52,256 bases of DNA from Candidatus Woesearchaeota archaeon (GTDB lineage Archaea; Nanobdellota; Nanobdellia; Woesearchaeales; GW2011-AR9), in assembly GCA_016185725.1 (NCBI GenBank), contig JACPNA010000020.1, positions 1 through 52,256 of the forward strand, written 5' to 3'. A program made the translations under genes and the position numbers. This document shows, in pieces, positions 1 through 48,637 of this stretch. The notes under the pieces were generated by a model. It was not told the origin of the DNA, made no database searches, and saw nothing but the letters and a program-made list of their open reading frames with translations. How positions within the stretch are numbered: position 1 is the stretch's first letter; each line of letters starts with the position of its first letter.

Positions 1-140
1 ATCCGCAACTTTTTTATATTTAGAAGTTATTATTTCCATCTGTAGTTCACCTCGTCGTTAAAATGTTTTTGGTTAAACGTTTATCGACGTGAACTACTTT
101 ATATTTTTTATGAATTTAGAAGGAGGGTTTCATATTAGCC

Positions 141-185
141 GTGTTAGTGGATGTGTACCACCAGTGAAACACACTGGTGGAAAAA
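141..185 (+). repeat. solo copy of the 45-nt 3' module of the 139-nt structured repeat
   Basis: Exact match to the last 45 nt of the copies at 3405..3543 and 45468..45606. Contains the 9-bp hairpin CCACCAGTG-AAACA-CACTGGTGG followed by A5. Confidence 0.85.
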
Positions 186-283
186 GCATATTTTAGAACG
201 GCGGAAAAATAAGCAGTATAATGAAATTCTTGCGCTAAAGCAGGGGGTTTTATACCCAGCGAAATTTCCTATAAGATATATTA

Positions 284-3123: not shown

Positions 3124-3402
3124 ATGGCAAAGGCGGTTATTACGTTTAAAATTATGCCGGAGTCGCCGGATGTGGATTTAGGACCGATAAAGAAGGAGGC
3201 ATTACGTATTGGAAGAGAAGGCGGAGCTATTGGAGAAATGCAGATACAAGAAGAGCCGATAGCGTTTGGATTGAAGGCGGTGCTTGTTTTAGGAATGTAT
3301 AATGTTGAAGGCAGCGACTTTGACGCGATTGCAGAGAAAATGAGTATAATTGAGAAGGTGCAAAGCGCAGAAGTGGCAAAGATGGATTTGGCGCTGGGTT
3401 AA
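3124..3402 (+). CDS. translation elongation factor aEF-1 beta
   Basis: MAKAVITFKIMPESPDVDL...EEPIAFGLKAV... is a typical aEF-1beta. Internal ATG of track ORF 3052..3402. Confidence 0.9.
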   Translation: MAKAVITFKIMPESPDVDLGPIKKEALRIGREGGAIGEMQIQEEPIAFGLKAVLVLGMYNVEGSDFDAIAEKMSIIEKVQSAEVAKMDLALG

Positions 3403-3404
3403 AT

Positions 3405-3543
3405 GTCAAAGAAAACCGACCACCACCAGTCAATAGACTGGTGGCATGCTCGCCTGCGGGCTCGGGTCGGTTTTCTGACCATGCTTTTTCCACTTTAAGT
3501 GTTAGTGGATGTGTACCACCAGTGAAACACACTGGTGGAAAAA
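3405..3543 (+). repeat. 139-nt structured, GC-rich intergenic repeat, copy A
   Basis: 138/139 identical to 45468..45606. Has a 15-bp closing helix plus two near-identical 9-bp hairpins. Confidence 0.9.
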
Positions 3544-3671
3544 TTATTCTATATTTAAAAAATAGGGATAGTATGTTTAGTCGTATTCTTGCTATGGTGT
3601 GTGTAATACAACAAGAAACAGAAAGCACGATTTTTTTATCAGATAATACTACAAATAAGGAGGTACCTCTA

Positions 3672-4136
3672 ATGAAATTGACAAGTACAGCGTTTAAGGA
3701 TAAGGCGATCATTCCCGGTGTGTATACGTGTGATGGAAAGAATATAAATCCGCCATTGCAGATTTCGGATATTCCAGCGAAGGCAAAGAGTTTAGTGTTG
3801 TTGATGGATGATCCAGATATCCCGGAAATGGCGAAGAAAAATTTTAATGTGAATGTGTGGGATCATTGGGTGGTGTTTAATATGCCACCAACGATTACAG
3901 AGATAAAGGAAGGAGAAATACCAGAGGGAGTTATGGGCCGAAATACACGCGGGAATAATACGTATAGTGGACCTTGCCCGCCAGATAGAGAACATCGGTA
4001 TTTTTTCAAGTTGTATGCGTTGGATACCTGGCTAGATTTGAAGGAAGGAGTGTCAAAGAAAGAAGTTGAGGGGGCGATGAAGGGACATATTATTGAGAAA
4101 ACGGAGTTGATGGGAAGATACGAACGTGTGAAGTGA
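3672..4136 (+). CDS. PEBP / YbhB-YbcL family protein
   Basis: MKLTSTAFKDKAIIPGVYTCDGKNINPPL...DDPD...HRYFFKLYALD motifs. AGGAGG sits upstream of ATG 3672. The upstream part of track ORF 3441 runs through the repeat. Confidence 0.8.
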   Translation: MKLTSTAFKDKAIIPGVYTCDGKNINPPLQISDIPAKAKSLVLLMDDPDIPEMAKKNFNVNVWDHWVVFNMPPTITEIKEGEIPEGVMGRNTRGNNTYSGPCPPDREHRYFFKLYALDTWLDLKEGVSKKEVEGAMKGHIIEKTELMGRYERVK

Positions 4137-4178: not shown

Positions 4179-5972
4179 TTAGCCGAAAACTTGTTTAAAC
4201 CAGTTTAACATTTTTTCGAGGAAACTATTCGTTTCTTTTAATTGTGCACTGATGTCAATACATTTTCCATTACTACATTGATTGCTGGCACATTCATAAT
4301 TATTTTGACATGACGCATCAATATCCTGCTGTAGTTTCAAAATTCCATCGATATTACAAAAATTAGCCATGCTATCTTGAACTAATCTTGTTCCGTAGGG
4401 CAAACAGTTGCCACCAATTTTACAACCAGTACATTTTTCTTCTTTTGGTGCTTCTATTGTTGGTGTTGGCGTAGTTAATTGTTGTTTTTCTTTTAAAGTA
4501 TTTGTTGCTGGTTTAATTTCAATTGGTTTAGATGATTCAGTTACAATTGGTTCGGTTAAACTACCGGTTACTATCAATTCCTTGCCTTGCAAATTATATT
4601 TTTTATAATTTTGTAACACTTTAGCTACTTTTCTAGTATCTTCTGGAGAATGTCCTGTTACTATCATTTGAACATACCCATTATTTTCTAAAAGTTTGAT
4701 CATGCCTTCTCCTTCTTTTAATGATTCGCCAGCACCGTTAAATAAAATGTTAGTTATATCATTATCACTAGATTTTCCTATAACTACGAGATTTGTGTGT
4801 AAGGGATCATTTATTTCGCTGTCTAATTTAGCAATATCCACAAGAGTATATCCTGAATTGGTTAATCCGGCAGCGATATCTGTCATAGCCAAATTGTCAG
4901 TAGATGGTGATTTACTACCAACGACAAAATAAGCATTTGATTTTCCTTTTTCAATCAAAAAATTAGGATAATTGGATAAATCTGAGGGGGTGGTTATTGG
5001 CGTGGTTACAATTTCTGGCGATATTGTTTTCGTGCTAACTTTGATGCCTTTTTCACCGTTTAAACAAAATGAAACAGAATGGATACCGCCAGCATAGTAT
5101 TGAGAGATAATATTCTGAATACTTAAGGTTACACCAAAAGGTAATTGATAACTTGCGCCTTCTATTAAATTTTCACTTTGTTGGCCGTTGATGGATAATT
5201 TTACTTGATTTTCTCCAATCTGCGGATTTGATTCAATGATGAATGGAACTATTTCATACGTCTTTTTCAGGCTTGTAGGAGTAGTTACACTTTTTATTTT
5301 ATAATCTGCAGTATGGGGATCGGAAACACTTTCAAAAGGATATGTTTTGCCATTTAGAAGAATGGAAAACGTAGCTTTACTATCTTGTACTTCAACGTTA
5401 CTTGTGATAATATTACCACTAGTCTTATCTAATAATTTAATAAGAGGCGATGGTTTGACGGTGCTATCAGCCCCTTTATACATTACAGTATTCCCATCAA
5501 GAATAAAGATATCATTCTTACTGATTTCTGAAACGATTACTGTTTCTGCTTCTCCCATTTTGTAAGTTCCAAGTTCTCCTTTTAAAAGAGTATTAGTTGA
5601 TTTACAGACCAATGGGCTATCTTTTTTTTCTTGTGATTTAACTGGGATTGTTCCGGTGCTGGTAAGCGAAAAAGTAGCTTGATTAATTACCCCAGGATAA
5701 TTTTGATTGACAATATCAGTTATGGTTATGATGCCACCATCAGATAAAATGTAACTTTCGCTCACTTTAAGTTTAGAAGTTGGTTCGTTATTCACAGTGA
5801 ACTTTGCTTCATTATTGTCCACATAATTTAGTGTTATACTATAGGGAATATTTCCAAGAGTATATATTTTATTTTCTCCTTCTAGTAAAGTGTTAGTTGA
5901 AGTTGTTTCTGCTAAAATATTTATACTTAACACAATCATGATTATTACGCTTAGTAAAATGTTTTTTTTCAT
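4179..5972 (-). CDS. secreted surface protein with repeated beta-domains, an S-layer-like segment and a Cys-rich C-terminus
   Basis: 597 aa with an N-terminal signal peptide. Has repeated AKFTVNNE...SYxLxDG modules, a FVVGSKSPSTDNLAMTDIAAGL segment and a C-terminal Cys cluster. Confidence 0.7.
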   Translation of the reverse strand: MKKNILLSVIIMIVLSINILAETTSTNTLLEGENKIYTLGNIPYSITLNYVDNNEAKFTVNNEPTSKLKVSESYILSDGGIITITDIVNQNYPGVINQATFSLTSTGTIPVKSQEKKDSPLVCKSTNTLLKGELGTYKMGEAETVIVSEISKNDIFILDGNTVMYKGADSTVKPSPLIKLLDKTSGNIITSNVEVQDSKATFSILLNGKTYPFESVSDPHTADYKIKSVTTPTSLKKTYEIVPFIIESNPQIGENQVKLSINGQQSENLIEGASYQLPFGVTLSIQNIISQYYAGGIHSVSFCLNGEKGIKVSTKTISPEIVTTPITTPSDLSNYPNFLIEKGKSNAYFVVGSKSPSTDNLAMTDIAAGLTNSGYTLVDIAKLDSEINDPLHTNLVVIGKSSDNDITNILFNGAGESLKEGEGMIKLLENNGYVQMIVTGHSPEDTRKVAKVLQNYKKYNLQGKELIVTGSLTEPIVTESSKPIEIKPATNTLKEKQQLTTPTPTIEAPKEEKCTGCKIGGNCLPYGTRLVQDSMANFCNIDGILKLQQDIDASCQNNYECASNQCSNGKCIDISAQLKETNSFLEKMLNWFKQVFG

Positions 5973-6112
5973 TTTTAACCTCGTTCTGTTTTGTTCTTAT
6001 TTTGTATCAAAGCAAAAATCTGCTTGGTAAATACCGCCGGCAAATGGTTGGTACTGTGTTTTTGTCACTACTCATTTTTGATTGTTTAATCAGGGAATAA
6101 AATCCCAATTAG

Positions 6113-6835
6113 TTACTTTACTAAACATCCAATTCCATCGTTTGTAATACGTGCATTGTAGCAGTCTTTGAATTCTGAGCTTCCTTCCGCGAGGGCTTTG
6201 GCGGCTTTTCGCACATAATCAGCGGAACTTCCGGTAACGAAGAGGAAGGTTAGGTCGCCTGATTTATAACCAAAAATTCTTCCCTCGTTGTTGAAGGTTT
6301 CGTTGCATGAGCCACCACATACTTTAAGTGCTTGTCCAGTAAAATAGTTGTTACAAGGCGTTCCAATATAAATTTTATTCTTTCCTAAGTTTTTCTTGTT
6401 TTGAAGATTCATCAGTTCTGAGTCTAAAACTGTTGAACCAACAACAACTTCTATTCCTTGTTTTACCAATGCTGAACTTATGTCCGAAACAGCCAACATT
6501 TCTTTTGATTCTGCTTTTTCTCCGAGAACAAAAAGCCCTTCAAATTTATTATTAACTACGAACGGTTTTGGATAATTGCCTATTTTATATTCTTCGAAAA
6601 GAAGTTCACAACCGGTATTTGTTTCTTGGGTTGTGCTATCTTGGTTCTGATGGTCTAGTCTATTCTTTACAGGATATCCCAGTCTGCCGTTATCTGTATA
6701 CACTCCCGCATCAACAGAGCTAATGAGGGGTGATGTAAATTCAGAAGTACATCCCATCATATTTACTAATGCACCAAGCGCCACATATTTTCTTAATTTC
6801 ATTTTAGTTGTCATTTTTTCTCCAGACATCCTCAA
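6113..6835 (-). CDS. putative lipoprotein with an S-layer-like domain
   Basis: Signal peptide ending in the lipobox-like MMGC. The FVLGEKAESKEMLAVSDISSAL segment resembles the one in the 597-aa neighbour. Confidence 0.65.
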   Translation of the reverse strand: MRMSGEKMTTKMKLRKYVALGALVNMMGCTSEFTSPLISSVDAGVYTDNGRLGYPVKNRLDHQNQDSTTQETNTGCELLFEEYKIGNYPKPFVVNNKFEGLFVLGEKAESKEMLAVSDISSALVKQGIEVVVGSTVLDSELMNLQNKKNLGKNKIYIGTPCNNYFTGQALKVCGGSCNETFNNEGRIFGYKSGDLTFLFVTGSSADYVRKAAKALAEGSSEFKDCYNARITNDGIGCLVK

Positions 6836-6852
6836 ACCAGGGGTTTCAGAAA

Positions 6853-6893
6853 GCGGAACAATATAAATAAGCTTGGCGGAACATAGCGGAACA
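6853..6893 (-). promoter_or_regulatory. three direct TGTTCCGC repeats bracketing a TATA-like box upstream of gene 6113..6835
   Basis: GCGGAACA on the + strand at 6853..6860, 6876..6883 and 6886..6893. TTATTTATAT (minus strand) lies at 6861..6870, about 25-35 nt upstream of the ATG at 6835. Confidence 0.45.
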
Positions 6894-6898
6894 AAGGG

Positions 6899-7894
6899 TT
6901 ATTGCTCTAAAAACCAAGCCGTCAGTTTAACTTTTCGTATTTTGCCTTCTTTGGTTGTTTCTACAATGTTTTTCTGTTCTAAAGAGCGTAAATTTCTGAA
7001 TAAGGAACTTTTTGAAAGACCTGTTTGGTAGTGGATTTTAGAAAAGTAAATTGGTTCTGTTTGGTTTTGTAAGAAGGCAACAATTTTTTGTTCATTAATT
7101 CTTAAGGTCTTAAAAATATCTGCGGTACGAGTGCTTGTTTTCTGGATTGTTTTTTCTTTTTTTTGTTTTATTGTTTTTGTCTTTTTATTGATAGTACTTA
7201 ATGATTTTTTTCTGAAATAGTGATAATATAAACTTAATCCGATGACAAAGAGTAAAATTCCAAAAAAAAGCAAGACAAATAGGGGGGAATAATTTTGAGA
7301 TTGTGAAGTTATTAATCGTGTATCTAATTTTATTTCAAGATATTGTTTTGATCCTTGTTTAATTGTAATCTCTTTAATTCCTAAACTATCTTTGTAACTA
7401 CTATAAATTTTACACTCTCCTAGGGGGACATACTCTAAGGAAAAAGAACCAAATTTATCCGTTTTCTTGGGAAAATTGACACCTAAGGCATTATTACAAT
7501 CAAAGTTAAGATTGGCTTCGGAGAGGGCTATATCTACTTTGTCTTTTACAAAACCACTTAAACTTCCTACAGGATAAAGATAAATAACTTTGATAAGTTT
7601 ATTTTCTAAGGATAGGACTGTTTCACCATAATAATCGTTGCCCGGGGTGGTAGGATTATTTACAATTATTTTTAGATGGTGATCTCCTTCAGACATTTTT
7701 AGGTTGAGATTTTGATTTTTTTCTAGGTAGTAATTAGTAATTTCTCCATTATTATCTAAACTTAGAAAGGCATTTTGAATTGGTTCTTGGGTGATGGCAT
7801 CGGCAAAAGTTAGAATTACGTTAGTAGTATCATTTTGGGCAAAAGAAAGGGGAATGGTTAGTATTAGTACGATAAAGCATATTCTCGGGAACAT
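6899..7894 (-). CDS. membrane-anchored winged-helix transcriptional regulator with an extracytoplasmic domain
   Basis: Signal peptide, about 190-aa external beta-rich region, one TM (LFVLLFFGILLFVIGLSLYY), a K-rich linker, and a C-terminal wHTH (SKIHYQTGLSKSSLFRNLRSLEQKNIVE). Confidence 0.65.
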   Translation of the reverse strand: MFPRICFIVLILTIPLSFAQNDTTNVILTFADAITQEPIQNAFLSLDNNGEITNYYLEKNQNLNLKMSEGDHHLKIIVNNPTTPGNDYYGETVLSLENKLIKVIYLYPVGSLSGFVKDKVDIALSEANLNFDCNNALGVNFPKKTDKFGSFSLEYVPLGECKIYSSYKDSLGIKEITIKQGSKQYLEIKLDTRLITSQSQNYSPLFVLLFFGILLFVIGLSLYYHYFRKKSLSTINKKTKTIKQKKEKTIQKTSTRTADIFKTLRINEQKIVAFLQNQTEPIYFSKIHYQTGLSKSSLFRNLRSLEQKNIVETTKEGKIRKVKLTAWFLEQ

Positions 7895-7948
7895 AGAGGA
7901 AGTATTATGTTTATGTTTATAAAATTTAGTAGAAATGATGTTCTCATT

Positions 7949-7958
7949 GGGGGGGGGG
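7949..7958. repeat. G10 homopolymer tract in a divergent promoter region
   Basis: cattGGGGGGGGGGcaac, between the divergent starts at 7894 (-) and 8022 (+). Confidence 0.9.
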
Positions 7959-8021
7959 CAACTCGTCTTTAAATAGAGGAATAACTTTCTAGAATAAAAA
8001 ATACAGTAAGAGGTGTAATAA

Positions 8022-8372
8022 ATGAAAAAAATAATTTTAGGTTTGTTAGCAATGTTAGGAATAATGTTATTGGTAGTGAGTTGTAGCGGACCAGTGGCGG
8101 GAGAGGCTACGGCATCTAAAGTTTGTGATGGAGATCAATTTATTTTGAAGTTGGATGTACCAGTCACTGTTAATTATGGAACAGGATTACAGTCAAAAGT
8201 TTATGCATATAAATTGGATTATATAACTAGTACACAAGCAAAGTTAACGGTAAATAATGAGGTGACTAACAAAATAGAAGTAGGAAAATCTTACACACTA
8301 AAAGATGGAACAGGAGTAAGTATTGTGAGGATATTTGGAAGTTCTGCAAGAGTGTGTGTGAATTATAAATAA
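8022..8372 (+). CDS. small lipoprotein with a single TVNNE-type surface domain
   Basis: Lipobox LLVVSC. AKLTVNNEVTNKIEVGKSYTLKDGTGVSIV is paralogous to modules in 4179..5972. GAGGTG sits upstream of the ATG. Confidence 0.75.
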   Translation: MKKIILGLLAMLGIMLLVVSCSGPVAGEATASKVCDGDQFILKLDVPVTVNYGTGLQSKVYAYKLDYITSTQAKLTVNNEVTNKIEVGKSYTLKDGTGVSIVRIFGSSARVCVNYK

Positions 8373-8380
8373 TTAGTATT

Positions 8381-9478
8381 TTATTTTTTTATTTCTTGAA
8401 TTATTTCTTTTATTGACTTTTCTGTTTTGATGCCGTTAGGCGAGAAATGGGTGTGAACGGCAGGAAGTTGTTTAAGGAATGGTTCGATTCTGGGAGGGTT
8501 GATTTTTAGTTTTCTCGCGATTTCATGCAAGTCGTAAAAGCCGAGAATATCTTTAGTTGATTCTTCTTGGAGAAGGTTAAGAAATTTTTGTTCTTGGGGG
8601 AAGGGATTGTTTTTATTCATTGTGGTAATTAGTTTTTGGTTGTGGAGTTTGCCTGTCCAGAGGGGACCGGCGAATTGAAATTCTTGTTTACAATCGCATG
8701 TTTCTTTGTTGTGTATTGATGATGTATAGTTTAAACAATTGGGACAGAATAAGAAGTATTGATGTTGTTTTACAAGGGCATCACAGCGTTCTTTACCTTT
8801 TTCGGATTGAAAATAAATGCGAAAGTAATGGTCTTTGTGATAGCTAAGGATAGGCGTCAATGCTTTGTCAAATTGAATGCCTTGCAATTGTACTTTGCGG
8901 ATGAGAATTCGTAAGCCAAGTTCGTGCATAAGATAATTTTTCATTGAAGTTGCCCAATATTTGCGTTTAGTTACAGAGGGATAAGTTCCGGTTAAGGCGG
9001 CGGTATCTGTTGCTGTAATCGCAAGAATACCATGGCGGGAAATTCGAGCAACTGCGGCAGGGAGAAAAGGATTAGGCGAGCCGAAGGGATCAATGTCAAT
9101 ATAATCAAAGCCTTTGCTTTGATTTAAGAAAAGTGATGCTTCTTGATTATGAAGAAATAAATTAGTTGGTTTTTTTATTTTGTTTAAGGTTAAATAATTT
9201 TGAATGGTTTTAGAAAAGTTTTCTTTGTTATCGTTGATGTGTAGTTCAGTAATTTTATCTTTGGTTAGCTCGTTGAGAAAACGTAATGATCTTATACCGG
9301 AACCGGCTAGAGGATCGGCTAGTTTCATATTTTTGTTAGGGAGGGAATTGAGGAGAAGGATAGAGATATTACGATTAGCTATCATTAAAGGATTATAAAA
9401 AATATCCATTTTGGCATTGACATTACCTTTAGGTAAGTCGATGTTAAGATTAATGGAATGTTCTGAAATGAGGGACAT
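8381..9478 (-). CDS. trm1: tRNA (guanine26-N2)-dimethyltransferase Trm1
   Basis: FYNPLMIANRNISI, DPLAGSGIRSLRF, DIDPFGSPNPFL and a Cys cluster are typical of Trm1. Start set at the internal ATG 9478 to avoid overlap with infB; 9544 is also possible. Confidence 0.85.
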   Translation of the reverse strand: MSLISEHSINLNIDLPKGNVNAKMDIFYNPLMIANRNISILLLNSLPNKNMKLADPLAGSGIRSLRFLNELTKDKITELHINDNKENFSKTIQNYLTLNKIKKPTNLFLHNQEASLFLNQSKGFDYIDIDPFGSPNPFLPAAVARISRHGILAITATDTAALTGTYPSVTKRKYWATSMKNYLMHELGLRILIRKVQLQGIQFDKALTPILSYHKDHYFRIYFQSEKGKERCDALVKQHQYFLFCPNCLNYTSSIHNKETCDCKQEFQFAGPLWTGKLHNQKLITTMNKNNPFPQEQKFLNLLQEESTKDILGFYDLHEIARKLKINPPRIEPFLKQLPAVHTHFSPNGIKTEKSIKEIIQEIKK

Positions 9479-9500
9479 GTTGACAATAATTGAAGAAAGG

Positions 9501-9510
9501 TTTAAAAAAA
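9501..9510 (+). promoter_or_regulatory. TATA-like box for aIF5B (near-leaderless)
   Basis: TTTAAAAAAA is centred about 26 nt upstream of ATG 9531, in the 52-nt divergent spacer. Confidence 0.35.
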
Positions 9511-9530
9511 CTTTGATCGATTTTAGAGAT

Positions 9531-11318
9531 ATGGCTCTCCGCAAAGTTTTATTGACAATTGTTGGACATGTTGATCATGGAAAGACTTCGTTGTTAGATA
9601 AGATTAGAAGTTCTACGGTGGCAGCAGGAGAAGCGGGGGCAATTACCCAAGCGATTGGTGTTTCAATTATTCCCATTGAAGTTATTAAGAAAATATGCGG
9701 GTCGTTGATGAATGTGTTTCAAGGTAAAGTTACCATGCAAGGTTTATTGGCTATTGATACGCCGGGTCATGCTGCATTTACTTCGTTGCGGAAAAGAGGG
9801 GGGTCATTGGCGGATATTGCGGTACTTGTTATTGATATTAATGAAGGATTTAAACCACAAACTTTAGAATCTATTGAGATCTTGAGAGCGAATAAAGTTC
9901 CGTTTATTGTCGCTGCGAATAAGATTGATTTAATTGACGGCTGGCAGTATGATGAGAAGAAATTTTTAATGGATAATATTAATGGGCTTGATTACAAAAT
10001 ACAAGGTTTATTTGAGCAGAAGATGTATGAATTGGTAGGGAAATTTCAAGAATTAGGGGTGGAGGCGGAAAGATTTGATAGGGTAGGCGATTATACTAAA
10101 CAGTTAGCTATTGTGCCGGTTTCTGCACGAACGGGGCAAGGTGTTCCTGAATTGCTATTAGTCTTAACTGCATTAGCACAGAAATATTTAGAAAAGCAAT
10201 TAACAATTGAAGTTAAAGGAAATGCGAAAGGAACTATTCTAGAAGTGAAAGAAGAAAAAGGTTTAGGTACAACGATTGATGTTATTATATACAATGGAAG
10301 TTTGAAGGTTAATGATTATTTGGTTATTGGGGGTATAGATGGACCAATTGTGGTTAAGATTAGAGCTTTACTCGAGCCGGTAGCATTGGCAGAAATGAGA
10401 GATAAAAAAGGTAAATTTCAGAATGTAAAAGAAGTATTTGCGGCTACAGGAGTTAAAATCTCAGCGCCGGGATTGGAAAAGGCTATTGCGGGTATGCCGA
10501 TAAGAGGTTGCAGCGGTAAGGCTGAAGAAATGGAATTGCTTAAAAAAGAAGTGCAAGAAGAAATTTCTTCGGTAGTGATAGAAGATAGTGAAGAATTAGG
10601 AGTAATAATCAAAGCGGATACTATTGGTGGGCTGGAAGCGTTAAGAAATTTATTACAAGAAAGACAGGTACCAATTGCTTCATCCTCCTTAGGGGAGATT
10701 ACGAAAAAAGATTTGGGGAAATTAGAGATGGTTAGAGAGAAGGATGAATTCTTTGGAGTAATATTAGGTTTTAATGTTCGTGTTCCTGCGGAAATTGAAG
10801 AGATGCGGAAGACGAAAAATTTGAAAATTTTTACTAATGAGGTTATTTACAAAACTATTGAAGATTATGAGAAATTCAGAGAGGGATTAAAGAAAGAGAT
10901 AGAGTTACGTGAGCTTAATAATTTAGTTAGGCCATGCAAATTTACGATTTTGAAAGGGTATGTGTTCCGACAGAATAACCCGGCAATTGTTGGTGTAGAA
11001 ATTGAGATTGGCAGGATTAAATCAGGAGATCCAGTGATGAATGGGGAAGGCAAACGGTTAACGCAAGTTAAAGCTATGGAAGAAAAACAAGAATCGTTAA
11101 CTATAGCAGAGCAAGGTAAACAAATTGCGATGTCGTTAGATAATGTTACGGTGGGCAGACAGATTCATGAAGGAGATTTCTTATACACCGATATTCCAGA
11201 AGATGATTTTAAGAAGTTGAAGGAATTAAAGAAACATCTTTCTAAAAATGAGGTGGAGGTTCTTAAAGAAATTGCAGAGATTAAACGCCGTAATAATCCG
11301 GTGTGGGGCGTGGGTTGA
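9531..11318 (+). CDS. infB: translation initiation factor aIF5B (IF2-like GTPase)
   Basis: RKVLLTIVGHVDHGKTSLLDKIRSS, DTPGH and NKID GTPase motifs. ATG 9531 gives the canonical N-terminus. Confidence 0.9.
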   Translation: MALRKVLLTIVGHVDHGKTSLLDKIRSSTVAAGEAGAITQAIGVSIIPIEVIKKICGSLMNVFQGKVTMQGLLAIDTPGHAAFTSLRKRGGSLADIAVLVIDINEGFKPQTLESIEILRANKVPFIVAANKIDLIDGWQYDEKKFLMDNINGLDYKIQGLFEQKMYELVGKFQELGVEAERFDRVGDYTKQLAIVPVSARTGQGVPELLLVLTALAQKYLEKQLTIEVKGNAKGTILEVKEEKGLGTTIDVIIYNGSLKVNDYLVIGGIDGPIVVKIRALLEPVALAEMRDKKGKFQNVKEVFAATGVKISAPGLEKAIAGMPIRGCSGKAEEMELLKKEVQEEISSVVIEDSEELGVIIKADTIGGLEALRNLLQERQVPIASSSLGEITKKDLGKLEMVREKDEFFGVILGFNVRVPAEIEEMRKTKNLKIFTNEVIYKTIEDYEKFREGLKKEIELRELNNLVRPCKFTILKGYVFRQNNPAIVGVEIEIGRIKSGDPVMNGEGKRLTQVKAMEEKQESLTIAEQGKQIAMSLDNVTVGRQIHEGDFLYTDIPEDDFKKLKELKKHLSKNEVEVLKEIAEIKRRNNPVWGVG

Positions 11319-11440
11319 TGAATTCTAAAAAGAGAAATTTGATTACGAAAGAACTTAAAGAAGGATATATTGTTAATGCCAAAATAGATAGAATAATGAA
11401 TAAAAAATGGGAAAAAATTTCTGGAGATATTATTTATTAA
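11318..11440 (+). CDS. possible 40-aa basic small protein
   Basis: Its ATG overlaps the infB stop (TGATG), and it ends 9 nt before the next gene. No recognisable motif. Confidence 0.25.
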   Translation: MNSKKRNLITKELKEGYIVNAKIDRIMNKKWEKISGDIIY

Positions 11441-11449
11441 GGTGAATAT

Positions 11450-11926
11450 ATGCAACAATTAACTATACTTAATTCACGAGATGTGAAGAAAATAAGAGAG
11501 CTAGTTGTTAAGCAGTTTGGCTATTTCCCAGAGGAGGACTATGCGTTTCTTAAGGGAGAGAATGATAAGGTGTATATGGTGAATAAGGATGTAGCAAGGG
11601 TTGATTTGAAAAAGTTGATTGTAGATAGAATGGGGTTATATTTTGCGGAGTTGCGGGAAACGGAAGTGAGGTTAAGCAAGGAAGGAGCGCAATTATTAGG
11701 AAGAGAAGCTAGAGATAATAAGAAAGAGTTGAGAAATGTGGTTGATTTAAATCAACGAGAAGTTAAGGCTTATTTTGCGGGTGTTGATTTGGTCAAGGAT
11801 TTGGGGGAGGAGAATAAGTTGGTATTATTGCAGTTTGGGAATGATGTGTTTGGCTGCGCTAAATATAAGGGGGGGAAAATCATTAATTTTATGCCAAAAA
11901 TTCACCGAGGAGAAGTTATTTTATAA
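11450..11926 (+). CDS. PUA-like RNA-binding protein (NIP7 / RsmF C-terminal-like)
   Basis: 158 aa. GLYFAEL...RLSKEGAQLLG...YFAGVDL...FGCAKYKGGKIINFMPK pattern. AAGGTGA sits upstream of the ATG. Confidence 0.5.
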   Translation: MQQLTILNSRDVKKIRELVVKQFGYFPEEDYAFLKGENDKVYMVNKDVARVDLKKLIVDRMGLYFAELRETEVRLSKEGAQLLGREARDNKKELRNVVDLNQREVKAYFAGVDLVKDLGEENKLVLLQFGNDVFGCAKYKGGKIINFMPKIHRGEVIL

Positions 11927-12798
11927 TCCCCGTTTGCGATGGGTTTTAAGAGATAATAATACGCCGCTCCGGCGATTAAGGGAGAAAGTTTTGTTCTGGT
12001 ACATATCCACTGTTGGGGGAATATTTGTTCCGGTGGCAGGGGATGATCAAAGACAAATATTTTGTATCCGCCATTGTGATGTTTTTTTCTCAATTTTTGT
12101 TGAGAATAGATAATATGAGAACGTTCAGGGTGTGCAACATCGCCTTGCTTATTGCGAATGTGATCTTCAAGAGTTTCGTAATGTATTTCTAAATGTAAAT
12201 CATTAAGTTGAGGGATGATGGAATTCCAGCTCAAGTAATGGTGAACGGCTTTGTAGCCGGATTCTTTGGGTGTAGTAACGTAATCTTTTTCTTCGATTAA
12301 ACGAAAACGAGGGTGAGAAAGAAGAGCATTTTTGGCGGCATAGCAAGATTCCTGTGTTGAGGTGACGATGTTTAAGGCGTAGATATCAGATACGGCAATA
12401 CGATGAAGTTGGGTAGGGTGGTGAATACCGGAATATTCAACATTGGCAAGAAAGCGGGTGATTTTTTCAATAATACTCTCCACGCCTTTTGTTCGGCCTA
12501 CAATATTAATAATAGGAGAGGTCTGATGAATGGAAAAATCACCATATTCTTCAATTAAACCAGAGAGGTCCAGATTATCAGAAACATAATTGGGAGCATG
12601 AACAATCTTTTTAGTGGCGAGCGGAATGGAAAAGAGAGAAAGAATGTCTTGTTCTATTACTAAGGAAAGATAGTGAGGATTACGTTCAACAATAATAATA
12701 TGTTCGTCAGATACTTTGTGATTCGTGGTACTTCTAATTATATCCAGCAGTCGATGTGCGCGTTCTTGATTTACATTGGAGATTATGGATTTGGGCAT
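11902..12798 (-). CDS. RelA/SpoT-domain (RSH synthetase-fold) nucleotidyltransferase-like protein
   Basis: IVGRTKGVESIIEKI, VSDIYALNIV, KDYVTTPKESGYKAVHH and LEIHYET align with RSH synthetase motifs, with substitutions. Confidence 0.55.
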   Translation of the reverse strand: MPKSIISNVNQERAHRLLDIIRSTTNHKVSDEHIIIVERNPHYLSLVIEQDILSLFSIPLATKKIVHAPNYVSDNLDLSGLIEEYGDFSIHQTSPIINIVGRTKGVESIIEKITRFLANVEYSGIHHPTQLHRIAVSDIYALNIVTSTQESCYAAKNALLSHPRFRLIEEKDYVTTPKESGYKAVHHYLSWNSIIPQLNDLHLEIHYETLEDHIRNKQGDVAHPERSHIIYSQQKLRKKHHNGGYKIFVFDHPLPPEQIFPQQWICTRTKLSPLIAGAAYYYLLKPIANGDYKITSPR

Positions 12799-12884
12799 TG
12801 TAATTACCTGATAGTAATGGAAAACACGAAAGATTTATAAATATTGTTATTATTTAATAGTAAAAACAAACATGAGGTTCGAAT

Positions 12885-14444
12885 ATGAATAAAAGATTAT
12901 ATTTTTTAATGACCGTACTCTTAGTGGTAACGGCTTTATTTACAAGCCGAGTTGTTGCGGATTTAGCGGAATCGCAACAAGCGTATGATACAGCGAGAAA
13001 TCAATATAATGATCTGCGCGTAGAATATAATGAGGTGATAGAGAAGTATGATAGTGTTAGTGTTAGTGGGGATATTACTCAAGTTGAAAGTTTACAGTAT
13101 GATTTTTGGGAAGTACAAAGTACGGCTAAGCACTTTGTAAGCTATAATTTAATGTATGCTGCTCAAGCGCAGAGTTCTTCAGATCCACAAGAGCAGACTC
13201 TGAGAACAGAATTTTTGGCATTAGGACATTTATTCGCACAAGTACAAGAAGATTCTTCTGCAAAGATAAATGAGTTGGAGCCGATTAGATTTCAATTACA
13301 ATTATGGCAAGATTATCAGATATTAGCAGGGCAGATAGATACGGCAAAAACGAAGGGGTTATTATTGAATCATGATATTGGGAATGCAATGGCCGTGCCA
13401 GGAAATACGGTTAAGGTCTTAGAATTGAAAGAAATGTTGTTGCTCCAGGAAGCGGTGGTGAAGACATTAAAAACATCTGCTTCCAATGTGAATCATAAAG
13501 CCATTGCTATTAAGGATACAGCATTGCAAAAAAAATTAACGAACTTAGTGGATGCGATGGATGCTGAGCTGAAAACAATTACAGAAGTGAAGGTAAGTTT
13601 AGATAGTTATATCAGCATAGTTAATAATAATCCTGTATTGATAAGTATAGGCAATAAAAGTATTACTATCGGCGGTACGTTGAGTTTTACCGTAAGTGCA
13701 TCGGATGCGGATAATGATACATTACAATTCACGATGGAAAATAAACCAACTACAGCCACGTTTGATAATAAAGTATTTAGCTGGACACCCACCGCTTCCG
13801 AAGCAGGGATCTATACAGTAACATTTAAAGTTGCGGATGGAAAAGGAGGGGAAGCAAAAGAAGCAGTAAAGATTACGGTTAGCGCAAACACTCCGTTAAC
13901 TAAGCTGCAGGAAGCACAGCAAAAATTCAATAATTATCAAGATAAATTCGAAAGTTACAAAGATGATTATTTAAGCTATAAAAAAAATTACGATAACGCA
14001 GTAAAGAATAATGATTATAGCGATGTTAAAAAGTATACTCAAGAACTTAACGGTCTTGATGATGAAGTTAAGGATTTAATCAATGATTTAAAAGATTTGA
14101 AAGATGAAGCTGATTCCTTAACAGATGGGGATGTGTTGTATGATGATGTTAAAGATTTGCAAAAAGATGCAGAAATGTTACAAACAAAGATTAAAAAAAT
14201 CTTTGATGGCGAACAGGTTAAAGAAAGTACATCACAAGCTAGCATGACTAGTAATGTTAAACCTTCTATTGAAAAACAGGTAGAAGTACAAAAATTGAGT
14301 ACAATGCCTGGGGAGGGAGTTGCTAGAGAAGATGTTCAAGATGTTAACAATAGTAATGATTTAAGAGCAAAGGCACTGCTTATCGGCGGAATTGTTATAT
14401 TAATGGCAGTGATTGTATTCTTGATGGCTGTGGTGATGTTTTAA
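12885..14444 (+). CDS. secreted, C-terminally anchored surface protein with coiled-coil regions and a cadherin/Ig-like domain
   Basis: Signal peptide, FTVSASDADNDTLQF...WTPTASEAGIYTVTFKVADGKGG Ig-like module, and C-terminal TM LLIGGIVILMAVIVFLMAVVMF. Confidence 0.7.
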   Translation: MNKRLYFLMTVLLVVTALFTSRVVADLAESQQAYDTARNQYNDLRVEYNEVIEKYDSVSVSGDITQVESLQYDFWEVQSTAKHFVSYNLMYAAQAQSSSDPQEQTLRTEFLALGHLFAQVQEDSSAKINELEPIRFQLQLWQDYQILAGQIDTAKTKGLLLNHDIGNAMAVPGNTVKVLELKEMLLLQEAVVKTLKTSASNVNHKAIAIKDTALQKKLTNLVDAMDAELKTITEVKVSLDSYISIVNNNPVLISIGNKSITIGGTLSFTVSASDADNDTLQFTMENKPTTATFDNKVFSWTPTASEAGIYTVTFKVADGKGGEAKEAVKITVSANTPLTKLQEAQQKFNNYQDKFESYKDDYLSYKKNYDNAVKNNDYSDVKKYTQELNGLDDEVKDLINDLKDLKDEADSLTDGDVLYDDVKDLQKDAEMLQTKIKKIFDGEQVKESTSQASMTSNVKPSIEKQVEVQKLSTMPGEGVAREDVQDVNNSNDLRAKALLIGGIVILMAVIVFLMAVVMF

Positions 14445-31431: not shown

Positions 31432-32244
31432 ATGGATCCTGGGCTTATTGCGAAATTGCATCCGTTAGAACGGAAGGTTTTGCCGACTTTGAAAATATAT
31501 AATGAATTAAGCAAGATAGTTTTAGAATCAGGATTGCGGGAAGTGGAAGTTCTGCGAGCATTGCAATGGTTAGAGAATAAAGATGTTCTTAAAATAAATT
31601 CTGTGAAAAAGAATTTAGTGTTATTAGATAATAATGGGTTGAAATATAAAAAAAATGGTCTGCCAGAAAGAGCGTTTCTGAAGGTTTTAACCGAGAGTTT
31701 TCAAAGTGCGGAAATCTTAGCTAAGAAAGCGAATTTGTCTAATGATGAGTTAAGTGTTTGTTTAGGACGGCTTAAACGGAAAGTAGCAATTGAGATTATT
31801 AAAGATAAAGAGTTAATGGTTAAATTAACTGGTCAAGGTAAGAAGCTGCAACAAGAAGTAACTTTAGAAGAGAAATTTTTACAAAAGGAATTTCCGTTAG
31901 AATTGGAAGCTATAAAAGATGCGGATAAGTTTGCGTTTGATGAATTACGTAAAAGAAAAGAAATTATTAAGATTGAGGAAAAGAAATTTGTGACGATTAC
32001 TCTGATGGAATTAGGGTATAAGTTAGTGCATATGAATATTAAAGAAGATGTAGTTAATCGGTTGACTAAAGAGATGATTAAAACCGGGAGTTGGAAACAG
32101 AAAGATTTCCGGGCGTATGATGTGGAAATTAATGTGCCGAAGATAACGGCGGGGAAAAAACATTTTGATAATCAAGCGTTAGAATATATCAAAGATTTAA
32201 AGAGATATCAGGAAATTTTGTGCAATCGGCATTTTGGGATTTAG
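31432..32244 (+). CDS. pheS: phenylalanine--tRNA ligase alpha subunit, N-terminal (winged-helix repeats) part, frame 1
   Basis: The archaeal-type PheS N-terminal region ends ...[17 protein letters not shown], then runs out of frame into a TAG. Confidence 0.8.
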   Translation: [270 protein letters not shown]

Positions 32245-32930
32245 ATGCGTTATTTGTACCCCAAGATCATCCAGCAAGGGAAATGCAGGATACATTTTAT
32301 CTGGAAGGCAAAGCGAAGTTGCCTACACTATGGGAGAAAATTAAAGAAACGCATGAGAATGGCGGGGATACAAAAAGTACAGGATGGAAATATAAATTTT
32401 CTAAAGAAGAAGCAGAAAAGGTTTTACTACGAACGCATATGACGGTATTATCCGCACGAAAGCTTGCACAATTAAAAAAGGAAGATTTGCCGGTGAAATT
32501 ATTTGCGGTTAATCGGGTATTTAGAAATGAAGCATTGGATTGGAAACATTTATTTGAATTTTATCAGGTGGAAGGGATTGTTGTTGATCCTCGGGCTAAT
32601 CTGCAGCATCTTAAGGGGTATCTACGCGAGTTTTATTTGAAGATGGGCTATACTGATGTGAAAATGACGCCGTCGCATTTTCCTTATACTGAACCGAGCT
32701 TAGAAGTTTCTGTGTTTCATCCAGTTAAGAAAGAATGGGTAGAGTTAGGAGGAGCAGGAATTTTCCGACCAGAAGTGGTTGTGCCGTTATTAGGATTTGA
32801 TTGTCCAGTACTAGCTTGGGGTCAGGGAATGGGAAGAATTATCGGAGAATATTGGAAATTGCAGGATATCCGAGATTTGTATAAGAATGATTTGAAACAA
32901 TTGCGAGAAATTAAAATGTGGATGAAATAA
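32220..32930 (+). CDS. pheS: phenylalanine--tRNA ligase alpha subunit, catalytic core, frame 0
   Basis: [50 protein letters not shown] and GAGIFRPEV class II motifs. The frame is open from 32172. Confidence 0.85.
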   Translation: [236 protein letters not shown]

Positions 32931-41056: not shown

Positions 41057-41144
41057 GGCAGCTGGGGGGAATCGAACCCCCTCCGAGAGATGACTGTACA
41101 AAAATTCCACAGTCTCCCATACTAACCGTTATACGACAGCCGCC
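41057..41144 (-). tRNA. tRNA-His(GUG) with a 15-nt canonical intron and a genome-encoded G-1
   Basis: Hand-folded. G-1, acceptor GCGGCTG/CAGCTGC, C73, D arm GTAT-AACGGTTA-GTAT, anticodon stem GGAGA/TCTCT, loop CU-GUG-G, BHB (CTGT/ACAG with bulges GGA and TCA), T arm GGGGG-TTCGATT-CCCCC. TTTTTAAA lies about 30 nt upstream. Confidence 0.85.
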
Positions 41145-45467: not shown

Positions 45468-45606
45468 GTCAAAGAAAACCGACCACCACCAGTCAATAGA
45501 CTGGTGGCATGCTCGCCTGCGGGCTCGGGTCGGTTTTCTGACCATGCTTTTTCCACTTTATGTGTTAGTGGATGTGTACCACCAGTGAAACACACTGGTG
45601 GAAAAA
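45468..45606 (+). repeat. 139-nt structured, GC-rich intergenic repeat, copy B
   Basis: 138/139 identical to 3405..3543; the only difference is t at 45561 versus a at 3498. Lies in a convergent intergenic region. Confidence 0.9.
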
Positions 45607-45695
45607 GAATGGAATAGATGTGCTCATAAAATAAAAAAAATCCACTTTATCTTTTGATTTCAAGAAATTATAAATATCTCATGAATAGGTAAATC

Positions 45696-46643: not shown

Positions 46644-48605
46644 ATGGAAAGGTTTATAAAGAAAAAGAAAAAAAATGGATACAGAAAACTGATGGCAAGA
46701 AAAAGATCAAGCGCAAGCATCCCTATCCCAATACGAGAGAAGGCAGAACTAGAGAGGAGAATTATAGATTTAGGAGAAGAGATTAAGTTTAAAGATGAAG
46801 AGATTAAGGCGTTAGGAGAGGCAAATGGAGAGCTTAATAGTAGATTGGGGGGAGAGGAAGAAAGAACTAGACATTATCAAGAGCAAGTGGGGGGTATTCG
46901 AAAGGAATATGACGCTCTTGCAAAAGAAGTTGATGAGCTTAAATCGGCTTATGAACTAATAGGCGAAGAAAAGGGAGAGGTTGTACTACAATTAAAAGAT
47001 GTGCAAGAAAGAGATATAGCGATGCGAATCGCGTATGAACTTCTTCTTAATAAGGTTAATACAACATTATCTCAAGAAAGAGAAGAAAGAGAAAGAGCAA
47101 TGGCAGAGTCATCACAACAAATCCAAGCGCAGAGTTTGGAGTTGGAGGGGGTATTTTCACGAGCCAATTGGCTTATTTTAGGATATACTTCCCTTGTACA
47201 AAATTTAGAAGAGAAACTGTGTTTTGAACAAAGTAAAGGAAAACAATTGGAAATGGAGAGAGAACGACTTATTAATGGTCATGCGACTACTCTGCACGAT
47301 AATGAGAGGGCATTAGAGGAAATAAACGCAGAATTACAAGAAAAAATAAGGGAATATGCTGAATATAAAAGAAAACACGAGGAGTATGTGACATGGTCAT
47401 GTGATCGTAACACTACATTGGAAAAAAAACTCCGGGGGGAGGAAGGAAAAAATTTTCAGTTAGGAATGGAAATGGGAAAATTATTAGGACGAATAAGAGC
47501 AACAGAACAAGAAAAAGAAGCACTACAACGGAAATTAAAAGAGTTAATATTTATTTCTGTGGAAGATACCAAAAAAATCAGAAAACAACATCAACATTTA
47601 GTTGATTTTGTTAATGTGAAGAAACGATTTAGGAAAATGTGTTTTCCAATAGAAGAAAGATTCCTTTCTTTAGCTGATAAATTCTATTTCTCAAAAGAAT
47701 TAAATAATACTGAACTAATTAATGAACTAAACGAACAATTCCAAGAATTTTTAGAAACAGAAGATAGTAAATATCATTATACTGCGCTCAAACTAGCAGA
47801 AGAGATGTTTACGCAACACCATACCAAAACAAGGATGTTCTATGATGTTCTCAATAGTATAGTGCTTTTAGAAATGCCGGTTTATCAGCAACTACGGGTA
47901 GGCTTACTCGCGTTAACGTTAACAAAAGAGGAGGTGACGATTAATACGGAAGAAATTCGATGTGCGAACAAAATTCTTACAGAGATTTCCAAGGAAGATC
48001 CAGCGTTGAAATTGAACTATAATAATCAGGTTCTACAGACGGCGGTGTATGCTTGTTCACAGATAATGGGGGAGAATGCACGAGCTCGTTTGCTGATGGG
48101 AAGTTATATTCTTCGAGAACAGTCTCTCAAAGAAAATGTGAATCCTGCATTACTGGAAGATGCGCGAGATTATTTTGCCCGGAGCGTTGCAGAAGATCAT
48201 TCTCTGGAAGGGGCATTACGAACGATTATAGCAGATTATGCCGAGAATACTCCCTTTGAATTGTTGAGGACGAGTTTCTCTGATTTGTTCCCACAAGTTA
48301 AAGAACTTTATATGATTAGTGATAAGGGGGAAAGAGATGAGGATGTTCAGGTTGGAGAAAAAAGAGAAGAGATGCATAAATTGGATGAGAGATATGCATT
48401 AAATTTATTATTAAATTCAACAGAAGAATCAACAATTTCTGAAGCTGCTGCTATTGCCAAAAAATTACGAGATGAGAAAAAAATATCAGAGAGTATTATT
48501 ATCTATGAAAAACTTACGGAAGTTGATCCGAATAATCATAATCATCATTATTTTTTAGCTACAACGTATGAACAAGTAAATAGATACGGGTTTAGCGCGA
48601 GTTAA
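46644..48605 (+). CDS. large coiled-coil protein with an alpha-helical C-terminal half and a TPR-like tail (paralog 1)
   Basis: 653 aa. Basic N-terminus, about 300 aa of E/K/L/Q-rich heptad-like sequence, and the tail ...AAAIAKKLRDEKKISESIIIYEKLTEVDPNNHNHHYFLATTYEQVNR. Confidence 0.7.
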   Translation: MERFIKKKKKNGYRKLMARKRSSASIPIPIREKAELERRIIDLGEEIKFKDEEIKALGEANGELNSRLGGEEERTRHYQEQVGGIRKEYDALAKEVDELKSAYELIGEEKGEVVLQLKDVQERDIAMRIAYELLLNKVNTTLSQEREERERAMAESSQQIQAQSLELEGVFSRANWLILGYTSLVQNLEEKLCFEQSKGKQLEMERERLINGHATTLHDNERALEEINAELQEKIREYAEYKRKHEEYVTWSCDRNTTLEKKLRGEEGKNFQLGMEMGKLLGRIRATEQEKEALQRKLKELIFISVEDTKKIRKQHQHLVDFVNVKKRFRKMCFPIEERFLSLADKFYFSKELNNTELINELNEQFQEFLETEDSKYHYTALKLAEEMFTQHHTKTRMFYDVLNSIVLLEMPVYQQLRVGLLALTLTKEEVTINTEEIRCANKILTEISKEDPALKLNYNNQVLQTAVYACSQIMGENARARLLMGSYILREQSLKENVNPALLEDARDYFARSVAEDHSLEGALRTIIADYAENTPFELLRTSFSDLFPQVKELYMISDKGERDEDVQVGEKREEMHKLDERYALNLLLNSTEESTISEAAAIAKKLRDEKKISESIIIYEKLTEVDPNNHNHHYFLATTYEQVNRYGFSAS

Positions 48606-48637
48606 TAAAAAATTAGGAGTTACGGATTAAATAAATC
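48444..48637 (+). repeat. duplicated 3' block, copy 1 (141 nt identical plus 53 nt near-identical)
   Basis: 48444..48584 equals 49908..50048 exactly. 48585..48637 matches 50097..50149 with 2 mismatches. Confidence 0.9.

Follow-up and report, generated by a model that had tools for sequence, protein, structure and literature searches.

A compact, gene-less repeat of Woesearchaeota as a probable non-autonomous transposon of the IS200/IS605 type

Analysis of a 52,256-nt contig from a Candidatus Woesearchaeota archaeon (JACPNA010000020.1 of assembly GCA_016185725.1, positions 1 to 52,256; hereafter the window, meaning this whole stretch) revealed a short, strongly folding repeat that is present as two full copies and one solo end. 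This repeat is probably a gene-less, non-autonomous transposon of the IS200/IS605 type, which moves as single-stranded DNA by means of an HUH enzyme, and would be a miniature inverted-repeat transposable element (MITE) resembling the palindrome-associated transposable elements (PATEs). The assignment is based on its exact ends, the lack of target duplication, a one-sided target, two subterminal hairpins that are alike and co-oriented, and complementarity between putative guide and cleavage sequences. An earlier note on this DNA had favoured a non-autonomous IS200/IS605 derivative on account of the similar subterminal hairpins, and the exact ends, unduplicated one-sided target and pairing by the rule of IS608 have now strengthened that idea. 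PATEs without any gene, mobilized in trans, have been described for IS200/IS605 (PMC10055086). The element is of an ordinary kind, in a lineage where none had been described; the points of interest are its host lineage, its copy number, a readable guide/cleavage code, helices that juxtapose its ends, and a candidate partner gene at the edge of the window.

The ends of the element were defined by a gene that it interrupts. In contig L017 a copy lies inside the reverse-transcriptase gene of a diversity-generating retroelement (DGR) and splits it into two open reading frames (ORFs). Deletion of 142 nt (ATCAAAAAATCC...GGAAAATGAGA) from this contig rejoined GACAAAAATA to TTTTATGG, and the protein restored in this way, in which ...IKKRIKDKN runs into ILWLIKIIL..., aligned without a gap to 12 intact homologues. 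The intact homologue P0011 (in L029) reads GACAAAAATATTTTATGG at this site, identical to L017 minus the element. The junction is ambiguous by at most 1 nt (one A), and the element sits between A and TTTTA. This gap-free restoration indicates that the ends are exact and that the target was not duplicated. The DGR itself occupies positions 7805-10235 of L017 on the minus strand; a 110-nt template repeat (TR, 9066-9175) lies beside the reverse-transcriptase gene, and the variable repeat (VR, 9520-9629), within an upstream 299-aa gene, is 80% identical to the TR with mismatches nearly all at TR adenines. A role of the element as a DGR component (an IMH hairpin or a TR) was considered and rejected, as the TR/VR pair of the L017 DGR lies elsewhere and the window hosts are no targets of a DGR.

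The exact restoration of the reverse-transcriptase frame by removal of 142 nt, together with a fold that brings the termini together, would also suit an intron-like sequence removed from RNA, either an archaeal bulge-helix-bulge intron or a small self-splicing intron. However, most copies are intergenic, and no general bulge-helix-bulge motif was apparent by eye, since the 5' flanks are not conserved. In addition, 142-144 nt is too small for a group I or group II intron, there was no match to any intron or ribozyme in Rfam, and precise excision is already a property of IS200/IS605 DNA transposition. An intron is highly improbable on these grounds.

Comparison of the flanks of 24 copies revealed a conserved pentanucleotide on one side only. 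In the plus orientation the 3' flank reads T, T, T, T and A in 23, 20, 18, 22 and 18 copies, respectively, and is random beyond; TTATA, TTCTA and TATTTA occur as variants. The 5' flank displayed a preference at position -1 alone (A in 14 of 18). The background frequency of TTTTA is 0.0045 per site (0.45% of window positions), giving an excess with P ~3e-27, and TTTTA follows all three copies in the window once these are corrected with contigs L026 and L028. No empty-site alleles of two of the window copies were seen in four runs. The termini, RTCAAA... and ...GAGA/GCATA, form no terminal inverted repeats (TIRs), and a DDE-type MITE was rejected, as there are neither TIRs nor a target-site duplication (TSD). 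A one-sided specific target combined with exact ends and no duplication is the signature of HUH single-strand transposons. In IS200/IS605 elements the target lies 5' of the left end (LE) on the active 'top' strand, outside the element (PMC3201880). Applied to the one-sided 3' target found here, this convention makes the minus strand of the window the top strand; what had been called the 3' module is then the LE and the 5' domain the right end (RE). The earlier proposal that the solo module is a lone RE, the part that gives rise to guide-like RNAs, was thus not borne out, as its conserved target lies 3' as written and marks it as an LE. The description of the bases flanking the 5' ends as unconserved was correct; the 3' flank is strongly conserved.

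Read along the top strand, the left part consists of TAAAA^, TCTCATTTT (ATGCTTTTT in the window type), the subterminal hairpin IP_L (CCACCAGTG-TGTTT-CACTGGTGG), a variable hairpin and GTGG-AAAATGAGA. A linker of 4-5 nt leads to the right part, which comprises the 5' strand of helix P1, the hairpin P3, CGAGCAT(A/G), the subterminal hairpin IP_R (CCACCAGTC-TATT-GACTGGTGG) and the 3' strand of P1, and ends in TTGAT^ (TTGAC^ in the window type). At the left end, a 9-nt leader that finishes in TTTT, the candidate left guide (G_L), precedes IP_L. At the right end, P3 (a small hairpin with a GAA or GCA loop), the invariant CGAGCAT(A/G) and IP_R form a three-way junction. IP_R and IP_L are alike and co-oriented, and the identity of IP_L across the family was imposed by the search pattern and is no measure of its conservation.

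The arrangement of these ends permits a comparison with the pairing code of IS608, in which the cleavage sites are TTAC (C_L) and TCAA (C_R), the guides are AAAG (G_L) and GAAT (G_R), and each guide lies directly 5' of a hairpin foot (PMC5934647). From the pairs stated for IS608 (A+17:T-4 and A+16:T-3; PMC5934647) we infer the rule c-4:g2, c-3:g1 and c-1:g4. Under this rule the right end of the element provides three Watson-Crick pairs in both subfamilies: TGAT with CATA gives T:A, G:C and T:A, and TGAC with CATG, found in the window subfamily and L015, gives T:A, G:C and C:G. The c-1:g4 pair thus covaries between the subfamilies (T:A to C:G), and positions -4 and -2 of C_R remain T and A, as in IS608. 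At the left end, G_L TTTT fits the target AAAA, and the variants of the target that are tolerated depart from it at c-3 or c-2.

Several observations weigh against this interpretation. The covariation at c-1:g4 separates two subfamilies only and represents one evolutionary event, and c-1 also covaries with a base of the linker, in the GTCA/TGAC helix described in the earlier note. P1 pairs the tail between IP_R and C_R, making P1 and the G_R-C_R pairing mutually exclusive. The match of G_L to C_L consists of A:T pairs throughout, in a genome rich in A and T, and is weak evidence; at g3 there is T, where IS608 has an A that it inserts into the protein; and the hairpins are perfect, without the extrahelical base of IS608. 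The alignment used to measure covariation was fitted to the structure and somewhat favours it. Finally, a search of the window and of about 4-5 kb around each copy, which did not extend to whole genomes, yielded no transposase for the element.

Side by side with IS608 of Helicobacter pylori (PMC3201880, PMC5934647), the element shares a target 5' of the LE and outside the element, an internal C_R in which c-4 is T and c-2 is A, 4-nt guides on the 5' side of both hairpin feet, the three pairs of the rule, a further hairpin 3' of IP_L, and precise insertion without duplication. It differs in its target (TAAAA versus TTAC), in the distance from C_L to IP_L (9 nt versus 19 nt) and from IP_R to the end (17 nt versus 10 nt), in its perfect stems without an extrahelical T, in having T and not A at g3, in an RE tail that is base-paired in P1, and in the absence of tnpA and tnpB genes. 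A closer likeness is to PATEs, gene-less IS200/IS605 derivatives that were named in Haloquadratum and reported in Geobacillus stearothermophilus (PMC10055086). Like PATEs, the element has no gene, carries subterminal hairpins at LE and RE, is multi-copy and presumably mobilized in trans, and has a one-sided target (target-adjacent motif, TAM), a transposon-encoded end motif (TEM) and no duplication. Unlike them, it resides in DPANN Woesearchaeota, has no Rfam, plasmid or phage match, is compact (142-152 nt) and extremely abundant relative to single-copy DNA, and contains the additional conserved helices P1 and P4, which pair near-terminal regions.

We also weighed a MITE moved by a different HUH enzyme (an IS91/ISCR- or Helitron-like Y2 enzyme, or a TnpA of the REP/RAYT type), in which the hairpins would be origin or terminator signals. 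Helitrons and IS91 elements insert in an A/T context without duplication and have a hairpin near one end. The element resembles Helitrons and IS91/ISCR in its presumed HUH-type chemistry, in insertion between A and T (5' A in 14/18, 3' T in 23/24) without duplication, and in a hairpin 9-10 nt from one end, and no Y1 tnpA motif was found in the window and 25 loci scanned. However, it has near-identical co-oriented hairpins at both ends, a different size and architecture, termini of RTC...GAGA/GCATA and not 5'-TC...CTRR-3', no GTAG-type REP tetranucleotide 5' of the hairpins, and a fit to the IS608 rule. Among archaea, IS91-type elements are rare and IS200/IS605 elements common. Membership of the Helitron/IS91 group was rejected, as TC/CTRR termini are absent and the target is TTTTA and not GTTC/CTTG, although the A^T context and the hairpin distance of about 10 nt do match. 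Repetitive extragenic palindromes (REPs) and bacterial interspersed mosaic elements (BIMEs) with RAYT (TnpA_REP; PMC8266576, PMC3479197) are likewise high-copy extragenic palindromes related to IS200/IS605 ends and processed by a Y1 HUH enzyme. REPs, however, are single palindromes of 20-40 nt with a conserved 5' tetranucleotide, often in inverted pairs, whereas this element is a fixed 144-nt composite with two co-oriented hairpins, a defined LE, RE and target, and one copy that interrupts a gene. Mobilization by another HUH enzyme is accordingly quite unlikely.

Covariation analysis, which the earlier note had recommended, supported the proposed helices. A covariance model built from 14 copies was used to align 23 copies, and 92.9% of cells in the resulting alignment were standard pairs. 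Eight pairs were changed on both sides, compared with 4.8 +/- 1.1 in shuffled alignments (2 of 500 reached 8), and the covariation score was 0.101, compared with 0.050 in shuffles and at most 0.033 in slid controls. P1 occurs as AAAACCGA/TCGGTTTT, AAATCCGA/TCGGATTT and AAAATCGA/TCGATTTT, IP_R as CCACCAGTC/GACTGGTGG and CCGCCGGTC/GACCGGCGG, and P4 as TCTCATTTT/AAAATGAGA, ATGCTTTTT/AAAAAGCAT and ATTCTTTTT/AAAAAGAAT, with GGAAATTTT/AAAATTTCC in a relic on contig L021. Folded as single-stranded DNA, the top strand had a z score of -10.3, and relatives reached -10.5. P4 starts at top-strand nt 1, P1 ends 5 nt before the last nt, and their inner strands are 4-5 nt apart, a geometry that in the DNA fold would put two stem domains next to each other and both termini where they meet. 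Two pairing partners are open to the TTTT guide, the internal AAAA of P4 and the AAAA of the target. The non-Watson-Crick pairs of intact copies comprised three A.C on the plus strand (G.T on the minus strand) versus one of the opposite kind, and the P3 loops C-GAA-G and C-GCA-G on the minus strand are of a very stable DNA triloop type; both weakly hint that the minus strand is the functional one.

The strong fold, the compensatory changes in P1, P2 (IP_R) and P4, which exceed the known needs of TnpA binding, and the invariance of the single-stranded ATGCTCG motif would be accounted for by a structured non-coding RNA (ncRNA). The many copies would be genes for such an RNA, transcribed off the plus strand or, if it were a TnpB-type omega-RNA scaffold, off the top strand, and would have spread by reverse transcription or by hitch-hiking on DNA transposition. 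PATEs often encode omega-RNAs (PMC10055086), and genomes that carry the element encode reverse transcriptases (in DGRs). The element resembles the omega-RNA (reRNA) of IS605 right ends in that a structured region of about 90 nt fills the RE to its boundary and the target would double as TAM. It departs from it in that no TnpB was seen near the copies and that the module proposed for this role in the earlier note is the LE and not the RE. A comparison with 4,227 Rfam families, a check that the note had also put forward, yielded no match to the element, either at gathering score across the whole window or above chance at E <= 10 in regions 3300-3700 and 1-300, on either strand; this covers omega-RNA models as well as all others. 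The helices equally suit single-stranded DNA, and the JBDRIZ copies, in which P2 and P3 are destroyed, still multiplied. The ends are exact, with no poly-A or variable-length tail, which is unlike retroposition. No RNA-seq run was listed with the element, which is absence of data and not evidence of absence. An ncRNA as the principal identity of the element is unlikely.

If the element is indeed an IS200/IS605-type transposon, its transposition would follow the IS608 scheme. A Y1 HUH transposase (TnpA) supplied in trans would bind IP_L and IP_R and cut and join the element as single-stranded DNA, with G_L pairing to the target AAAA and G_R to C_R, as in IS608. The top strand would leave as a circle and reinsert 3' of TAAAA in single-stranded DNA. 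P1 and P4 may place both cleavage sites and both donor flanks side by side for a TnpA dimer, amounting to synapsis in cis.

Analysis of other genomes and metagenomes revealed a dispersed family and not a local duplication. An exact hairpin search of one genome per species returned 13 loci in five metagenome-assembled genomes (MAGs) of Candidatus Woesearchaeota; nine of the 13 are on separate contigs of MAG JBDRIZ01, where nhmmer added a tenth copy. A degenerate search of metagenome contigs returned ten, seven of them true loci and three chance matches. The exact-pattern searches fix IP_L, and older subfamilies with other hairpin loops are out of their reach. Family members are 142-152 nt long. 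The genes beside them are ordinary, and the copies are co-oriented with these genes, convergent or upstream; most are intergenic and one is inside coding sequence. Five JBDRIZ01 copies differ from one another by 1-2 changes per 121 positions, pointing to recent multiplication. In at least nine near-identical copies of this MAG, P2 and P3 are mostly destroyed by deletions; their multiplication nonetheless indicates that the full fold is not essential for spread. A degenerate hairpin pattern had 0 matches in viral contigs, distant blastn searches of plasmid and phage collections gave no match, and a literature search on MITEs in Woesearchaeota found nothing relevant.

The window sequence derives from groundwater metagenomes, and in its source samples the word depth of the element was 100-400 times that of flanking DNA. 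Summed word depth over the element reached 6,000-28,000 in run X1, compared with 65 for unique flanks, and the element was at 100-300 times unique flanks in runs X2 and X3; the solo LE had a depth of 5,000-13,800, compared with 66 in unique flank. Dozens of distinct flanking sequences are joined to the element, and assemblers broke contigs there. As this diversity recurred in four metagenome runs, an assembly duplication, which the earlier note had named as a possible refutation, does not explain the copies. Element words were present in at least 20 runs; these belong to more than 10 studies, which sampled groundwater, soil and freshwater sediment. Runs X2 and X3 also contain contigs of single-copy depth that join 3543 back to 3402 ('goes back 142'), reading GGTGGAAAAA, AAT and GTCAAAG in succession, and this junction, from somewhere in the community, represents either two elements in head-to-tail tandem or an RE-LE junction like that of a circle. 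A diverged relic at L021 1891-1967 lies directly upstream of a recombined copy whose 5' start is fused to IP_L; it has the hairpin CCACCAGTT-TGT-AACTGGTG and the P4-like helix noted above, and indicates that older subfamilies with other hairpin loops exist. The copy at L013 3768-3981 has an internal partial duplication (a 106-nt segment repeated) and overlaps the 3' end of a methyltransferase-like ORF, the last residues of which are encoded by the antisense strand of the element.

Within the window, a repeat finder recovered 3405-3543 and 45468-45606 as a 139-nt direct repeat (138/139 identical, 99%) and 141-189, 3499-3547 and 45562-45610 as a 49-nt family with 96-100% identity, in agreement with the earlier description of two near-identical full copies in one orientation and a third site that holds their last 45 nt, a shared stretch that measured 45-49 nt here. 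The 23-nt hairpin CCACCAGTGAAACACACTGGTGG occurs three times, compared with 0.00 expected from shuffles. The element was described as GC-rich and strongly folding, with a set of named helices; all of these helices are present, GC content is 0.47-0.49 compared with about 0.35 for the window, and the RNA fold has -66.6 kcal/mol, with z = -7.6 on the plus strand and z = -7.8 on the minus strand. Copy 1 begins 2 nt past the stop of aEF-1beta (TAA 3400-3402; PF00736) and copy 2 begins 79 nt past the stop of an MBL-fold gene (PF12706), placing both behind the genes named earlier. The neighbours aEF-1beta, RtcA, a thermosome subunit, an intron-containing tRNA and a PEBP protein indicate an archaeal context. 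All three copies have one orientation, in a tiny sample and in a window whose GC skew tracks the coding strand.

The length of 139 nt had to be revised. The canonical form in the window's subfamily has 144 nt (GTCAAAG...GGTGGAAAAAGCATA, followed by TTTTA), a length based on the points at which other copies diverge, on the solo copy at 141-190, and on Logan contigs of the same population. The flanks of other copies part from the window sequence only past 195-199, and the solo copy alone displays the complete end of the element within the window. The same-population contigs L026 and L028 have ...AAAAAGCATA TTTTA behind both full copies, L026 reading ...GGTGGAAAAAGCATATTTTATAGTCTGTTGTTTTT and then TTATTC at copy 1, and L028 reading ...GGTGGAAAAAGCATATTTTATCGACATCC...GGAATCTGC and then AATGGAATAG at copy 2. 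Compared with these contigs the window lacks 25 nt (GCATATTTTATAGTCTGTTGTTTTT) at 3543/3544, an extra segment present in contigs of three runs, and 54 nt (CATATTTTATCGACATCC...GGAATCTGC) at 45607/45608. Each gap takes the last bases of the element, its TTTTA target and some flank; at copy 1 only AAAAA (3539-3543) remains of the P4 partner strand AAAAAGCAT. The gaps, which are either an assembly artefact at repeat boundaries or a genuine transposon-adjacent deletion, explain the earlier reading of 139 nt and hide the conservation of the 3' flanks at both full copies. Coordinates are listed in Table 1.

Table 1. Coordinates in the window of the repeat copies, their parts and the adjoining unit.
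Feature	Position	Strand	Remarks
Moderately repeated unit adjoining the solo LE	1..140	-	Word depth 4-10x unique flank in 4 runs; a 1,344-nt unitig ends at 135
Solo left end (LE)	141..190	-	IP_L hairpin 158-180 and terminal AAAAAGCATA; without right-end domain
Target pentanucleotide	191..195	-	TTTTA on +, TAAAA^ on top strand; common to most community copies
Full copy 1	3405..3543	- (putative active, top strand)	147 bits; GCATA, TTTTA and 15-nt flank absent after 3543
Candidate right cleavage site C_R (transposon-encoded motif)	3405..3408	-	GTCA on +, TGAC^ on top; TGAT^ in the other subfamily; 5' boundary of the copies at 3405
Helix P1	3411..3475	-	3411-3421 with 3465-3475; encloses IP_R and P3 (three-way junction); four pairs changed on both sides
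IP_R (P2), right-end subterminal hairpin	3423..3444	-	CCACCAGTC-AATA-GACTGGTGG; compensatory CCGCCGGTC/GACCGGCGG in L010, L002, L013
Candidate right guide G_R	3445..3448	-	CATG on top, directly 5' of IP_R foot; CATA in the other subfamily; within invariant ATGCTCG
Helix P4	3481..3543	-	ATGCTTTTT (3481-3489) with AAAAAGCAT; encloses variable hairpin 3490-3508 and IP_L; ends at terminus
IP_L (P5), left-end subterminal hairpin	3516..3538	-	CCACCAGTG-AAACA-CACTGGTGG; 8-bp stem same as IP_R
Full copy 2	45468..45607	-	151 bits; CATA, TTTTA and 45-nt flank absent after 45607

The position of both full window copies just downstream of plus-strand genes, and the T runs (GGTCGGTTTTCTGACCATGCTTTTT) behind the 5' domain, which resemble an archaeal oligo-T terminator, could be taken to indicate a 3'-untranslated-region or terminator cassette, or another cis-regulatory module, recruited by the host behind genes. 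However, across the family the orientations relative to neighbouring genes are mixed and one copy is within coding sequence, and the copy number and diversity of flanks are those of a mobile element. The TAAAA target often contains a TAA stop (as in L015 and L020), which accounts for placement near stop codons. Recruitment as a regulatory cassette is very unlikely indeed, and the two alternatives raised in the earlier note, a small ncRNA and a terminator, gained no support, there being no Rfam match and either orientation to neighbours.

We also examined the left edge of the window, which may hold a partner of the transposon. A gene on the minus strand, preceded by the ribosome-binding site GAGGTGA, begins at 39 (MEIITSKYKKVAD...) and exits the window; it is a candidate protein-coding partner. 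Most simply, the solo LE at 141-190 is the LE of a longer unit of about 1.4-1.5 kb, present in 4-10 copies, with the single gene from 39. Along the top strand the gene follows the LE at a distance of about 100 nt, and the unit could accommodate one ORF of at most about 415 aa; by analogy this would resemble a tnpB-only IS605-type element. A blastn search with window positions 1-140 and a tblastn search with the 13-aa N-terminus against all loci found no other copy; an exact match of this 13-aa fragment would score E ~1.3e3 in a local simulation. Logan contigs around the permease gene end inside the repeat. A six-frame scan of the window and 25 loci (L001-L025) for the Y1-transposase motif (KYRR...HUH, as a regular expression) found none, in keeping with the earlier statement that the window contains no transposase. 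A 512-aa DDE transposase between the element halves in L016 was rejected as the autonomous partner, as it belongs to an independent IS1182-like insertion sequence (211-1911; PF13751, PF05598) with its own TIR (CAGGTTG) and 4-bp TSD (TTCG), nested in the P3 loop of the copy. The same copy has a second small insertion in its P2 hairpin.

A more elaborate proposal unites these features: the element would be a self-synapsing substrate, by virtue of P1 and P4, and the three-way junction of its right end would be an omega-type guide-RNA scaffold used in trans by a TnpB-sized nuclease of the left-edge unit. We regard this combination as doubtful. If both parts were true, the hundreds of copies scattered over these small DPANN genomes would amount to a library of RNA guides, each with its own flank at the end.

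Other observations were made in the window. A tRNA gene at 41057-41143 on the minus strand carries an anticodon-loop intron of about 18 nt and is the window's sole gathering-level Rfam match (44.8 bits); ARAGORN in bacterial mode reported no tRNA or tmRNA and misses this gene. In rtcA (RNA 3'-phosphate cyclase), an in-frame TAG at 2679-2681 corresponds to GAG in L024, which encodes an uninterrupted 392-aa protein, and is either a strain variant or a base error. The gene for the alpha subunit of phenylalanyl-tRNA synthetase appears split at 32220-32244 into two overlapping ORFs in different frames (31432-32244 and 32220-32930), owing either to a frameshift or to an error in sequencing. At 48403-48637 and 49867-50149 there are direct repeats, 182 and 53 nt long and 95-96% identical; two neighbouring long coiled-coil genes (46644-48605 and 48654-50096) match almost perfectly over a C-terminal segment (...AAAIAKKLRDEKKISESIIIYEKLTEVDPNNHNHHYFLATTYEQVNR) and are followed by the same sequence.

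Little has been charted of the mobile DNA of DPANN archaea, a group with tiny genomes to which Woesearchaeota belong. At such a copy number, a 144-nt element fragments assemblies: contigs break at it, and the window lost bases at two copies. It can interrupt genes, such as the reverse transcriptase of a DGR, and its TAAAA specificity places it right behind TAA stops. As a probable IS200/IS605 substrate it is natural and very compact, and the guide/cleavage code of its TnpA would be readable directly from its ends. The additional end-juxtaposing helices suggest the testable idea that synapsis in cis may occur in short PATEs. Should there be a TnpB-type partner, the family would also be a candidate place to look for archaeal RNA-guided nucleases that use an A/T-rich TAM.

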